Below, piece after piece: positions 1,694 through 13,600 of a stretch of 60,283 nucleotides of DNA. Under the pieces are notes generated by a model. It did not search any database, was not told where the DNA came from, and saw only the letters and a program-made list of their open reading frames with translations. The stretch's first letter is position 1. Each line of letters starts with the position of its first letter. The stretch comes from Harriotta raleighana (lineage: Eukaryota). Position numbers and translations under genes: made by a program. The stretch is taken from assembly GCA_050575255.1 (NCBI GenBank), contig JBNZDD010013718.1:6627058-6687340 (forward strand). Reading direction: 5' to 3'.

Positions 1694-4600
1694 CTGAAAA
1701 GGAATTTTTAATTTTCTTTTGAATATAAATATATAAATGAGGCATTAAAATTTTCTAAAGAACAATAAAAGAGATGAAAATATGAAGTAAGCATAAACAG
1801 CTTGCATTTATATAGGGCCCTTCACGAGGAGTAGCAACAAGATAGGAAGTAATCAGAAGCACATCAATATAATTTTGAAATAAAAAGGGTTGAAATTTGA
1901 AAAACACAAAATATGTTAGTTTGTGCAGCAGTAAAACACATTGCGGCTTGTTGTAATTCTTTCATACCACCTCATTCACAGAAAACAAAACTGAAATATA
2001 TTGCTTTTTGGCTTTGACGTACTGTTGATGAAATCTCAACTGCATTTCAAGTCAAGAAAGCTATTGAGAATAGTTTTATCCTGACACTTTACATGAATCT
2101 AGACACTTAACATGTATCTAAACAGTTAACATGTAGCCAGAAGAAGTTCTCAATAAATCCTATTTTTAATCAAATATGCAAGTCAGCATGAGAGCAAATG
2201 AATGGTCCTCAACCAAATGCAAAAAAAAGAATTAATTTGTTGTAGTACAAAATTCATACCTAGGTTTCATGACTGCTGAATTAGTCATTTTAAATTTGAT
2301 TTTACCTTGAAAGTTTCAGCTGAGTTAGTTGAATATCCATGACGTCTATCACTGCAGGAACTGTGAATCCTTCAGCGGGGTGCAAATTAAATGCATTGCG
2401 GACAGTTATCAAACCCAAATCCGCAACTACAGCATTCATGGATGTGGAGGACTCAGGGACAATGATAACTGGAGCTTTTAAATTAATGTCCATCGACAGC
2501 CGGAAACTTTTCTTTGCAAAATCTTTCACGCTGGAGGCTGCTATTTCTGCAGCTTGAGCTGTGGCTGCACTTAAGGCTTCCTTTGCAATTTGGAAGTTGT
2601 CAACAAAGTTCTACAGTGAAAGGAATTAACTAAATCATTAAATGTTAGAGAAATGTATTATCTGTAAAACCAAGTAAAATGTGGAAATAAACTTTATATT
2701 ATCCTTTGACAGTCAGATGTTGACTTTGTTTAAAACATTGATTCACATGCTTATTAATAAAATTCCAAGCACTTTTCAAGTCCCTAACAACATTGTGTTA
2801 TTGCTGCATACATCAACAGGCAGGTTGTTTCAACCCTTGCTTCCCCGCGCTGTGCCTAGCTCTCCGACGTGCCAAAATGCTGAAATGCTCCACTTGAACT
2901 CTGCGGCGTGGGAGCAGAAACTCGCTTTTGTCTGCTCAGTCCCCGCGATGGTGACATAAGCGTGCAGGGCTGTATCACCCTTACGTGCAACACAAATAAT
3001 GACCCAAACATGCAAGCAGTACAGTAAAACCTCGTTTATCTGGCACCCATGGGACTTGGCCAGTGGCGGTTAAACGTTTTTTCCGGCTGAACGGGTTTGA
3101 ATTTTTTTTAATAATTGTTTTTTGAAAATTAAAATTTTTAGTACATACCATATTAATAATAGACTAAATAATAACAGAATATAATAACAGTACATTATTA
3201 TTTATATTTATCTTTGCAATCTCAGCACTGATTCGACGGAGGCAAAACAAAACACAACTTTAAAAAGCAACGAGTTTAGACCTGATTGATGGCCAGCACA
3301 CACACACACAGACAAACACACATACATAGACACACAGACAGACAGACACACACACACAGACACAGATCCTCAAAGATATTCAGTCTGAATCCATCATATA
3401 AATTCTGTCCACAATCCTCACCCCACCCCCACCTCCCTTTCCTCTCCCTCTCTCTCTCTGCATCAATCTGCCTGCCATTTCTCTCTCTCTTTCTCTCACT
3501 CCATTATGCTTTCCCCCATCTCTCTCTCTCTCTCTCTCCCTCCCCATCTCTCATGCCCCCCTCTCTCTTTCTCTGTCTCTCCATCCTCCCCTCTTCCCTC
3601 TCTCTCTCCGTTTCCTCCATGCCCCCCATCTTCCTCTCTCTCTCCGTTTCCTCTATTCCCCACCGCTCCCTCTATCCTTCTCTCTCTCTGGCCGCTACCT
3701 GCTGCAGTATTTATTATGTATACTTAACTTCCCAAAGGCAGGCACTCATCAGAACGAGGTAAAAAAGAAACGTGACTTTTAAAAGCAGGAACGAGTTTAA
3801 ACCCGGACATTATACGCATCGCCGGATAACTTCCGGTTCATCGAATCGGGACTTTTTTTGAGATGGCGGTTGAATGGGTTTTCCGATTATTCGAGTCACG
3901 GATAAGCTAGGTTTTACTGTATTTCCCTTATCAATATTCTTAATCAAATAAGTATTAGCAGTATACATACCAGCAGGGACTTAAGGAACTTGTGCAGATA
4001 AACAATCTGAATGCAGCCCACCTGCAACACTACTTTGCCATCTACCTTTGACATGTCAGTGTAGGCCTTGCCCTCAGTGGCATCAGGATACAAAAACATT
4101 TTGAAGCTGAAAACTTCATTTCCAATGATGGAAACCGCCTTGAAAAGATACGCAATAATGGAAACATTAAGACATCTTTTTCTTATGAATGGATTTATTA
4201 TTTCACTAAGCACTACTTCCACTAAAAATACAGTGTTCAAGAGTGAAAGTTTCAACTTCTACGCTTACAAGAAACAAAGTCGTATAAACATCGAGTGCAA
4301 TGACAAATCCTCTTCCAGTCTTACAATACAAACTGAAATGTGAATTTCAACAGGATACTAAGGGAGTTCACAAAGGTTGTTATTTCAGTTGAGTGTTCTG
4401 TTTTAATAAAAAGTGTGGAACATGTAGTGACTCATTTTAGTCTTCGTAGAATGTAATGAATTAATTTGGTTCTGCAGAATGTTTCAAATATTTTAAATGG
4501 CAATTTGTGCCACGCAGCTTACCTTTTTATGGAGAGTCTTTGAGTCAACATCCATTACAATGATATCCCTGAGACTGGCAAAAACTACTGTCTGTTTTGA

Positions 4601-10600: not shown

Positions 10601-13600
10601 AAATGTGATGTACCTCATGGTTGCATGGTTTCCTTGCAATGATTACGTACAAGAGAACCTCATTAGAACATTCCAATACAATTCAGAATTTCATGTGATT
10701 TCATGGCCAGGTTGTGATTTTCTGGAATCCAATATGCATGTTGCAACAATTTTTTCCCTGTATTTTGGAGGACAGTTATGAAAGACTGATTTCTTTACTC
10801 AGCTGTTGGTTTTGAACTCCTTTAATAACCACGACTATAATAGTCTTCCTCCAAATTGGATAAGAAAAATATTTACAATTATTATTCAGTTTCGCAGATT
10901 ATACAATCAGGGAAAATTGAATGCAAAAATGTGAGCCACAAATTTCAATCCTCTGATTGGAGTAAAATATTTAGAATGCCCTACACACTCTGGAACTCCA
11001 TCCCACAGTCCCTTTGCCTCGCTTCCTCCCTTGGCTCCTTCAATGCTGATCTCAAGCCCTTCCTCTTGAATCGTGCCTTCTGCTGCCCTCCCAACTCTCT
11101 CCCTCCCCTCCCCATTAACTTGCCCTCCCCCTGCTCGTGTCCCAACATGACTGTTCAGCACCTTGGGAGTCCTCCTGATGTGAAAGGCGCTCTATAAATG
11201 TAATTTTGTTGTTGTTATAGAATGGATTGATTAAAGTTCTGAATTGGCTTTACGTTTTGCTTCGTCCTTGAACGGTTTTGATGTACTTAATTCTTTGGCA
11301 CCTTCACCGAGGTTCTCCTCAAGAACTTTCATAAGTACAGTGAGATCTTCCTGACTGAGGACAATCTGAAATATAACCAGAGTAAGAGGATGTGGTGAAT
11401 GAGTGCCACATGAAGTGTAATCATAGTTTAATTCAGAATTTTTAAAAAAATGTACAAACTTGTACTTTCTCGAGCTTTGTGTTAATACTCCAATACAAAA
11501 TTAGTTCCTCCAAATAAAATAAGTATTTTTGTGTGAAATTTTGGGCCGTTAAATCTTATATGTTTAACATCAGAGATCACATCAACAATACCATTTGGAT
11601 TGAGTCATATTTTATCTGCAGGTTCCAATGTTTTTTTAAAATCTAGGTTCTGTTTTTTAAAAAGTTTAATTAAAATAAATTGGGATAAGTGTCTCAGTTT
11701 ATGTTTAGACAAGGTACCACAGAACTGTTAACAACAACGAAACCAAAGCACGGTGCGAATCCTCTACAAAAGATGAGAACAAGATTGACGGAATGGAACA
11801 ATCAGTCCAGTCTCAATGTCGTGAGACTCACAATCAGATAAAGATAAATGAAATGGTTCAGTGTCATAATAATCATAATCATTGCAATTACATCCTGAGG
11901 CACTGTTACTTACATTCATGGTTTTCAAATCCCCTTGGATTTCAACAGCTGGGATTCTCTGATACCAGGCTGCTGCCAAATTTCTTTTCACAGTCAGTTG
12001 CAGGTTAATGGGTTGCAGCATCTGAATGTCAGGCTGAGGTGAAATGCTGTGTAAGATGGTCCTGATGAAAAAAAAATACATTAATTACTGAATCAAACTG
12101 AAAGCTCCATTTGCAAATCCTTTATTTTGAAGTAACAAGAGACTTTCTTTCATTGGCTTTAATCTGTTTGCCAAGGTGACATGTTTGGCAACAGAATGTA
12201 GGATCAAGCCAATACTCTGTGATAATCGGCAGGAGCTGGACGGGCAGACCAGTCATGGATGCAGGAACTCTTCGCACTCATCTTGCATTAACCCTGCAAA
12301 CCAAAGCCTTAATGGGTAGGTTGGTCCAAGCTGGACAAGAAGTGGGACAGCTTGCCAGGCAATGTCAGCCAGTTAGACTCAGCCGGGCCACAAAGCACAC
12401 TTCCGGGTCCCCAAGCCTGGGCTCTTGCCGAGCCTAATACTTTCCAGAATTAGTTAAGTAAGATGAGTAATTTCAGGCAGAGCGCACATTCCAACAAATA
12501 TCTCCATGGGATGCACGGTTCTAAAATTTGTACTAGAATCCACTTTGGCACAAAACATGAAGTCATAATTTACCTGGATAGCTTGAACTGAGTCAGCTGA
12601 ATATCCATGACATCTATCACAACCGGCATTGTGAATCCTTCAGCGGGGTGCAAATTAAACACATTGCGGAGAGTTATCAAACCCAAATCCGCAACTACAG
12701 CATTCATGGAGGTGGAGGACTCAGGGACAATGATAACTGGAGCTTTCAAATTAATGTCCATCGACAGCCGGAAACTTTTCTTCGCAAAATCTTTCACGCT
12801 GGAGGCTGCTATTTCTGCAGCTTGAGCTGTGGCTGCACTTAAGGCTTCCTTTGCAGTTTGGAAGTTGTCAACAAAGTTCTACAGTGAATAGAATTAACAA
12901 AGTCATTAGTGTTAGAGAAATGTATTATCTGTAATCCAAGTAAAATATAGAAATAAACTTTATATTAATTTGAAAAACAAACATTTGTGATCTAGCTCTG
13001 AAGTAATGGGATTTTCTTAATCGCTATCCTTTGACTGTCAGATGTCCACTTTGTTTAACACATGTATCCATCTAATTATGAATAAAATTCCATGCACTTA
13101 GTCCTACTATCCCACAATAAGGAAAAATAAATCAATTAGTATCACTAAGTCATCAAATAATCTTCTAGGCCTCATGATTCACACCTCATTCTAGGATGAA
13201 TCCTTAGCTGTCTGCCAGAGAAGGAGATTCTCAAGTCAAACAAGGAGGAGTTCAGGCAGCATCTATGGAGAGTTAATATTTCAGGTTGATGACCCCATCA
13301 ATTCGTCTTTCGTTGAATGGTTATCGACCCAAAATGTTAACACACTCTCTCCGCAGTCGCTGCCTGACCTGCTGAGTGTTCCCAGTGACTTCTGTTTTTA
13401 TTTCAGAGCGCTGAATAGAATAGGCGGTGGGGAGCTGGAGGAAAATTGGTAACATACTTGTTAGAGGAATAATAAATTGCAGAGTTTCAATTAACTTACC
13501 ATCAATGATGTAATGAATTTTTGCATATAAACAATCTGAATACATCCCACTCGTAATGTGATTTTACCATCCACTTTTGACATATCCGTGTAGGTCTCAC

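Follow-up and report, generated by a model that had tools for sequence, protein, structure and literature searches.

Exons 35 and 46 of the lipid-transport gene VPS13C, an exon pair from an ancient internal duplication, have very probably been overwritten repeatedly by non-allelic gene conversion, which would sustain itself at an exon that is the longest of the duplicated module and among its most conserved. The window analyzed is the whole 60,283-nt stretch of Harriotta raleighana contig JBNZDD010013718.1, with the exons on the minus strand. Near-identity is limited to this pair and its upstream intron, and the pair groups by lineage, whereas its neighbors group by module. Exon numbers are those of the first-pass annotation: the 11-exon offset between modules was confirmed, and the absolute numbering was taken over as given. 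VPS13C orthology is indicated by two strong stretches on VPS13C of PDB 9yqp, with one on the VPS13A chain, and by two RBG5-7 modules; the window protein matches a Callorhinchus-type (holocephalan) protein at 90%.

Table 1. Positions of the duplicated modules, exons 35 and 46 and their shared intron in the window.
Feature	Position	Strand	Remarks
Module 1, exons 28–36	11914..17919	(-)	pairs except 35/46 at or near synonymous saturation
Module 2, exons 39–47	1546..9349	(-)	
VPS13C exon 35, module-1 copy	12574..12878	(-)	305 nt, phase 0 start
VPS13C exon 46, module-2 copy	2306..2610	(-)	305 nt, phase 0 start
Putative youngest homogenized core, exon 35	12630..12878	(-)	exon nt 1–249, 7 differences, pS 0.07 over codons 1–83
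Putative youngest homogenized core, exon 46	2362..2610	(-)	
Putative older 3' tail, exon 46	2306..2361	(-)	13 differences/56 nt, pS 0.74
Proximal shared intron upstream of exon 46, splice acceptor included	2611..2701	(-)	89% to 12879–12967 over 91 nt
Proximal shared intron upstream of exon 35	12879..12967	(-)	
59-nt indel, in exon-35 copy only	12968..13026	(-)	
Distal shared intron, exon-46 side	2700..2774	(-)	82.7% to 13025–13099 over 75 nt
Distal shared intron upstream of exon 35	13025..13099	(-)	

Both exons are bounded by AG and GT and are offset by 10,268 nt. A recount found 20 mismatches in 305 nt (93% identity), 7 of them in exon nucleotides 1–249 and the other 13 within the closing 56 nt (Fisher p=2e-6), in agreement with the distance and approximate counts of the first-pass annotation. 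Identity runs unbroken for at most 72 nt here and for 7–15 nt in the remaining pairs. The core holds 4 synonymous differences over 57.5 sites, and its right-hand breakpoint lies near 2361 in the exon 46 copy, equivalent to 12629 in the exon 35 copy. A low-confidence fold prediction for the exon-35 peptide (pLDDT 57.5, pTM 0.23) gives a single long helix followed by strands.

The homogenized segment continues into about 165 nt of upstream intron, whose similarity and single indel had been described correctly beforehand. When the 20 nt next to the exon were kept out of the score, this intron pair reached 101, compared with 19.7 +/- 2.3 for shuffled sequences (maximum 28, n=100 shuffles). It is the only one of 18 exon flanks with intron homology, the other 17 falling inside the shuffle range. 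The shared intron piece has no further match in the window; together with single-copy read depth over the exon-35-side bin, this indicates that it is not a dispersed repeat, and a transposon origin was ruled out on the same grounds. Divergence rises in steps from 7% at synonymous sites of the exon core, through 11% and 17% in the intron, to 74% at synonymous sites of the last 18 codons. Judged from sequence, this gradient points to overlapping, nested tracts of unlike ages and thus to more than one event. GC3 is 0.49 and 0.40 at exons 35 and 46, close to exons 36, 45 and 47 and inside the module range of 0.24–0.59; GC-biased conversion was not detected in these window exons, raised GC being an optional feature of the process.

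Synonymous divergence (pS) is 0.19 for 35/46 and 0.49–0.93 in the eight other pairs (28/39 to 34/45, and 36/47), so that the expected contrast between this pair and far more diverged neighbors was recovered exon by exon. Exon 35/46 is also the longest of the module, at 305 nt against 60–168 nt, and with 34/45 it ranks among the most conserved between orthologues. Such intrinsic conservation raises paralogue identity even without conversion. Purifying selection or parallel substitution alone could draw on it, but is extremely unlikely to have kept the exons alike: synonymous sites and intron are homogenized as well, and lineage-specific derived residues occur in both copies far above the flank rate.

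An assembly artefact, in which the assembler patched or collapsed one exon from its counterpart, is equally hard to credit. It is true that no long read spans both copies, that raw-read depth is only about 4x with three runs of one sample summed, and that the differences were judged among the rows listed, with 427 more rows besides. Against this, the copies differ at 20 sites and by a 59-nt indel, and summed depth is 3.2 in the exon-46 bin and 4.5 in the exon-35/intron bin, where 11 unique bins give a median of 3.8. Depth is thus single-copy over both, and the marks of collapse or false duplication (identical copies, halved or doubled depth) are absent. The same pattern also recurs in independently assembled species and in the RNA-type contigs of a relative's run, X5, which stop 67 nt into both exons and start again 55 nt before their ends.

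Comparison across species was made at the protein level; nucleotide differences were counted against X5 only, and homogenization of synonymous and intron sites is a result for the window. The internal duplication is common to all jawed vertebrates sampled, a span of over 400 million years, and the exon 28 tree separates the modules at SH-aLRT 99, in keeping with the great age assigned to it at first sight. At exon 35/46 the paralogues are 0.94 identical, exceeding orthologue identity both to P0052 (0.87–0.92) and to two sharks (0.77–0.80). This excess is clear at exon 35/46 only; elsewhere paralogue identity lies far under that to P0052. Quartet sites between the window and P0052 follow the same division: at exon 35/46 all 4 group by species and none by module, and in the other eight pairs together all 95 group by module and none by species. 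Residues V3, I23 and K33 stand in both window copies where both P0052 copies have F, K and Q.

Fast trees with SH-aLRT support were built for 21 taxa with two copies each; in AU tests a split by module was rejected for two exons, 35 (p=0.0004) and 34 (p=0.001), and not rejected for exon 36 (0.52) or exon 28 (0.52). Across jawed vertebrates, exon 35/46 thus clusters by lineage and the flanking exons by module, as had been predicted if conversion were at work. Derived residues shared by both copies, relative to those in one copy, number 11/4 in an icefish (flanks 4/91, p=4e-9), 5/1 in chondrosteans (flanks 1/51, p=8e-6), 4/5 at exon 34 in the coelacanth (p=4e-4) and 3/3 in Mustelus (p=0.002). 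Five of 32 clade rows passed Bonferroni correction, representing four lineages: chondrosteans, icefish, coelacanth (exon 34) and two holocephalan single-species rows, which are inflated by residues common to both. Homogenization shows up separately in holocephalans, sturgeons and paddlefish, an icefish and the coelacanth (exon 34/45), and less strongly in gar, in Mustelus and on the elasmobranch stem. In sturgeons and paddlefish, as in the coelacanth, exon 34/45 was homogenized, so the hot spot can extend there. The suggestion of recurrent concerted evolution is borne out by these fishes. Of the lineage-specific event first proposed, conversion stands on the strength of pS, intron and trees; its singleness does not, given the stepped divergence and the several lineages.

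None of nine tetrapod rows showed homogenization: the copies sort by module and are down to 60–75% identity (53 species), and orthologue conservation of the exon is 0.72–0.79 between mammals and birds or turtles. The first-pass annotation had named NFLNNF and AERAA in both human copies. Both motifs are indeed there, but they carry little force, since Pan copy 1 reads AEKAA, the two Pan copies are only 69% identical and tetrapods sort by module. Human and other tetrapod sequences thus appear to be weak evidence for recurrence, the good evidence being that from fishes.

Cycles of unequal crossing-over, with gain and then loss of a module, or repair from a reverse-transcribed mRNA could also transfer sequence between copies. 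A crossover between the exons stays in frame, and a predicted sturgeon gene model (P0021) joins module 1 straight to exon 47, like a one-module product. Ray-finned tracts, moreover, seemingly begin within the exon. We nevertheless consider this class of explanation very unlikely. Exons on both sides of the tract keep their module identity, which simple crossover cycles would not produce, and a spliced template, which would lack the intron that the copies share, is excluded for this lineage. Two copies were present in 163 of 165 proteins examined, a count from score-ranked searches that disfavor one-module forms and to which P0021 is a putative exception; no three-module protein was seen among the 165. 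Bombina (four copies) and Anolis s. ordinatus (three copies) were rejected as crossover products: their extra copies are near-identical, lie at offsets of 1262 and 984 (from k-mer diagonals) rather than about 515, and are probably false duplications.

Non-allelic conversion accounts for a bounded segment in which paralogues exceed orthologues, in a duplication older than the speciations, with copy number kept and several lineages affected. A double-strand break in one copy would be repaired from the other, 10 kb away, without crossover. Conversion depends on identity (about 80%) and length (about 200 bp) (PMC3924818), and pair 35/46 alone may have stayed above what recombination needs, being the longest module exon and among the most conserved; each conversion would restore the identity that permits the next. 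The present 72-nt perfect run, under the usual efficient conversion length, counts against this. Tracts would overlap and differ in extent, at least part of the information passing from exon 35 to exon 46. Converted alleles might fix because the lipid-bridge repeats are largely interchangeable there, and tetrapods, apparently also batoids and some teleosts, would have fallen under the threshold and escaped.

This length and identity account of the hot spot is what we infer, and selection is a competing cause. Conversion may be real and yet persist through selection for matched repeats, for a shared binding partner or bridge geometry, a reading that is compatible with the conversion account, differs from it on cause only and seems to us unlikely. 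The same exon recurs in distant lineages, residues 5–58 are nearly always the same in both non-tetrapod copies while positions 1, 3, 4 and several within 59–90 remain module-specific, and in the available part of PMC2720389 selection of this kind is put forward, as speculation, to explain long-lived conversion. The divergence of the tetrapod copies, however, speaks against it, and exon length and conservation suffice as explanation. A calmodulin-site explanation was rejected, the known site being N-terminal, between RBG1 and RBG2 (residues about 334–451), in what is available of PMC13430412. A bolder proposal, which we hold to be unlikely, is that 35/46 is an intragenic recombination hot spot active for more than 400 million years: matched-repeat selection in the lipid bridge would have kept it, occasional in-frame crossovers would have changed the bridge by three RBG units (compare P0021), and its shut-off in the tetrapod ancestor would have freed the repeats to specialize.

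VPS13C thereby offers an unusually clean natural experiment on the persistence of conversion and the escape of duplicates: among at least nine exon pairs of one age and locus, one went on converting in fishes over hundreds of millions of years but ceased to do so in tetrapods. A length and identity threshold can be tested against selection with existing genomes. Exon 35/46 also misleads phylogenies and short-read assembly, and conversion accounts for part of the similarity between VPS13C repeats that has been taken to mean a recent duplication.

The conversion process itself is textbook knowledge, and our literature search found no report of gene conversion or concerted evolution in VPS13C, although subscription journals and supplements (e.g., Levine's Supplemental Figure 1) could hold a mention. 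Intragenic repeats are homogenized in the nebulin triplicate, CR1 and LPA. Spidroins and filaggrin, from the portions of that literature available, likewise show concerted evolution in one gene, as here; most of these are tandem arrays that are young or have many copies and that change in copy number, whereas VPS13C has two ancient modules with one pair, sometimes two, of at least nine affected. Levine 2022 (PMC7613979) described the same duplication of about 500 residues, RBG5-6-7 twice, with VPS13C pairs much closer mutually than those of VPS13D. In the available text, this closeness is read as more recent duplication, gene conversion is named as a general caveat only, and no exon- or lineage-level homogenization is reported; here both are seen.

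The mammalian pairs BMP8A/B, DDX19A/B and TUBG1/2, as far as the available text of PMC2720389 describes their long-lived mosaic concerted evolution, resemble VPS13C in having two copies, mosaic homogenization with intron, several lineages and conserved boundaries. They are separate genes followed over about 100–130 My, whereas the present exons belong to one gene, span the jawed vertebrates and have one large clade that escaped. Capitella Dlxa/b and hexapod engrailed/invected, with homeobox-limited conversion in the accessible part of PMC3199776, share with VPS13C the restriction of conversion to the most conserved coding stretch and some intron of old duplicates. Those are inverted neighboring genes, whereas exons 35 and 46 are direct repeats in one transcription unit, so that a crossover would alter protein length in frame.

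The peptide encoded by VPS13C exons 35 and 46 matches human VPS13C at two places about 515 residues apart, bearing out the first-pass annotation's statement that the internal duplication is present in the human gene too; the duplication corresponds to the RBG5-7 repeat of PMC7613979. In a low-confidence structural model, the exon's product would form a long helix and then strands. Both modules of the window (exons 28-36 and 39-47) are 90% identical to the protein P0052 (XP_007905785) and 69-74% identical to sharks and rays. We take P0052 to be from Callorhinchus, a label checked against P0187 (named Callorhinchus milii), which is alike at four diagnostic sites. 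The window would accordingly come from a holocephalan other than C. milii.

Paralogous VPS13C exons compared in this analysis
Feature	Position in window	Strand	Description
VPS13C exon 35	12574-12878	minus	305 nt, canonical splice sites
VPS13C exon 46	2306-2610	minus	305 nt, canonical splice sites

Of the 20 sites at which the two exons differ, 7 lie in the first 249 nt (the core) and 13 in the last 56 (Fisher p=2e-6). Their synonymous divergence is 0.19 overall, 0.07 in codons 1-83 and 0.74 in codons 84-101, versus 0.49-0.93 in the eight other exon pairs. Their upstream introns are alike over 91 nt at 89%, followed by a 59-nt indel and 75 nt at 82.7%, and in a shuffle test of 18 exon-flank pairs only this one was exceptional (score 101 versus 19.7 +/- 2.3). 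The first-pass annotation had described each of these features, namely about 20 of 305 differences clustered in the last ~56 nt, similarity reaching the upstream introns with one ~59-bp indel, and, at pairs 28/39, 31/42 and 36/47, far greater divergence and no intron sequence in common, and all were recovered. Exons 33 and 44 are the next most similar pair by protein (0.71-0.75, rising to 0.81-0.83 in Pristiophorus and P0052), possibly a trace of old conversion; exon 33 (14137-14231) is 9 nt shorter than exon 44, in frame.

An assembly artefact was considered using read depth, summed over three raw-read runs from one sample, possibly the assembly's own source. Summed depth was 3.2 and 4.5 in the bins at the two copies, and 11 unique bins had a median of 3.8; thin as it is, this depth fits two genuine single-copy loci. 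In X5, a read run with assembled contigs from a relative differing at 84/1055 exon letters (guessed to be RNA), contigs connect exon 34 with 35, run from 35 through 45 into 46, and link 46 with 47. In exons 35 and 46 alike they break off after exactly 67 nt and pick up again 55 nt short of the end, and a separate 157-nt contig spans exon nt 38-194. Such symmetric breaks are expected from near-identical copies in k-mer assembly. Assemblers of this kind can lose single differences, so the X5 copies may fall short of exact identity. Because the 157-nt contig differs from exon 35 at 9/157 letters and the window's two copies differ at 3 sites there, the last core conversion would date to roughly one-third of the time back to the X5 split, with wide error.

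Elsewhere in the window, a 161-nt direct repeat (37593-37753 and 37755-37915; 99.4%) around a single N at 37754 is a typical scaffold-overlap artefact, and a tandem repeat with a period of about 79 nt (50446-50848) continues into a 141-nt N gap. A very high-copy SINE-like interspersed family of ~300 nt occurs at 6097-6267, 8336-8658, 14755-15077, 26591-26899, 30279-30581 and 58238-58544; read depth over this family reaches tens of thousands, compared with about 1 per run in unique DNA. Two repeats of about 500 nt in inverted orientation (19944-20484 and 20914-21396; 74%) lie either side of exon 20732-20583.

Three protein searches returned 228 distinct proteins, of which 165 were used after exclusion of isoform duplicates and partial records; species labels are database names, P0052 excepted. 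Two copies of the exon were present in 163/165. Nine proteins were dropped (extra copies in two, partial or gappy sequence in seven), leaving an alignment of 156 plus the window. Near-identical internal duplications in P0044 (Bombina, about 1262 residues) and P0045 (Anolis s. ordinatus, about 984 residues) are probably false duplications of assemblies.

Per-exon trees built from both copies in 21 taxa behaved largely as the first-pass annotation had predicted, exon 35 grouping by lineage and flanking exons by module: the exon 28 tree divides by module (SH-aLRT 99), a module split is compatible with the exon 36 data (AU 0.52), and the AU test rejects it for exon 35 (p=0.0004) and also for exon 34 (p=0.001). 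In the exon 35 tree the four holocephalan copies cluster together (support 96), as do both copies of icefish (99), Mustelus (90), coelacanth (88), gar (87) and chondrosteans (85); at exon 35/46 most close species pairs still group by module. Between the window and P0052, four quartet sites in exon 35/46 support grouping by species and none grouping by module; outside this exon pair the corresponding counts are 0 and 95. Because V3, I23 and K33 occur in both window copies and F, K and Q in both P0052 copies, as in sharks, sequence comparison places conversion in the window's lineage after its split from the Callorhinchus lineage. The latter possibly converted after the split as well, judging from one residue (T58 in both P0052 copies, S in the window).

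Derived residues common to both copies were counted at the protein level in 32 clades. Icefish (11 residues, p=4e-9), chondrosteans (5, p=8e-6) and coelacanth at exon 34 (4, p=4e-4) passed Bonferroni correction, together with two holocephalan single-species rows inflated by residues common to the two species. Significance was nominal only for Mustelus (0.002), the ray-finned fish stem (0.005), the holocephalan stem (0.01), gar (0.011), the elasmobranch stem (0.03) and Acipenser (0.03). None of the nine tetrapod rows reached significance, nor did batoids or most of the teleost rows. The ranges of copy-to-copy identity were 0.60-0.75 for tetrapods (n=53), 0.74-0.79 for batoids (n=4), 0.83-0.94 for sharks (n=8), 0.92-0.96 for chondrosteans (n=3) and 0.66-0.96 for teleosts (n=83). 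Since identity and significance vary by clade, conversion is episodic, not constant. The first-pass annotation had proposed a lineage-specific event and hinted at recurrent concerted evolution: an event in the window's lineage after the P0052 split stands, its restriction to a single lineage does not, since icefish, chondrosteans and coelacanth (exon 34) also pass, and these same clades support recurrence. At exon residue 23, human copy 1 (PDB 9yqp chain B) has R, as does copy 2, where the Pan and Prolemur records have K in copy 1; the human R23 is a single-site parallel change or a micro-conversion.

Because upstream intron sequence is common to both copies, the template in the window's lineage was DNA. 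Divergence is graded (7%, 11%, 17%, 74%), which points to overlapping tracts that differ in age. F82 occurs in both holocephalan copies and shark copy 1, with C in most shark copy-2 sequences, suggesting that exon 35 was the donor and exon 46 the recipient in the part with F82. The two exons that convert are 35/46, the module's longest and among its most conserved, and 34/45, second in length. PMC3924818 puts the working thresholds for conversion at roughly 80% identity and roughly 200 bp, with rates dropping with distance. Self-renewing conversion with stochastic escape would account for the pattern without selection for sameness of the two copies, although such selection may also be acting.

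A crossover between exons 35 and 46 would stay in frame; no three-module VPS13C protein was seen among the 165 examined. The one-module gene model P0021 (Acipenser sinensis, partial, unverified) passes from module-1 exons via a single exon-34/35 block straight to module-2 exon 47, with a short tandem duplication within its exon-35 part; it may have arisen by in-frame crossover in a second sturgeon copy, or else be a misassembly. In P0004 (Acipenser ruthenus, partial), residues 1-52 are exon-39-type sequence before exon 29, at the expected place of exon 28, possibly reflecting further conversion, an extra module or a gene-model error.

Within the limits of the literature searched, we found no report of conversion in VPS13C. 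The homogenisation of exons 35 and 46 is genuine, and is an unusually deep new example of a known process. It resembles the mosaic concerted evolution of PMC2720389 and the homeobox-limited conversion of PMC3199776, and stands apart from both in its intragenic setting, time depth and clade-specific shut-off.
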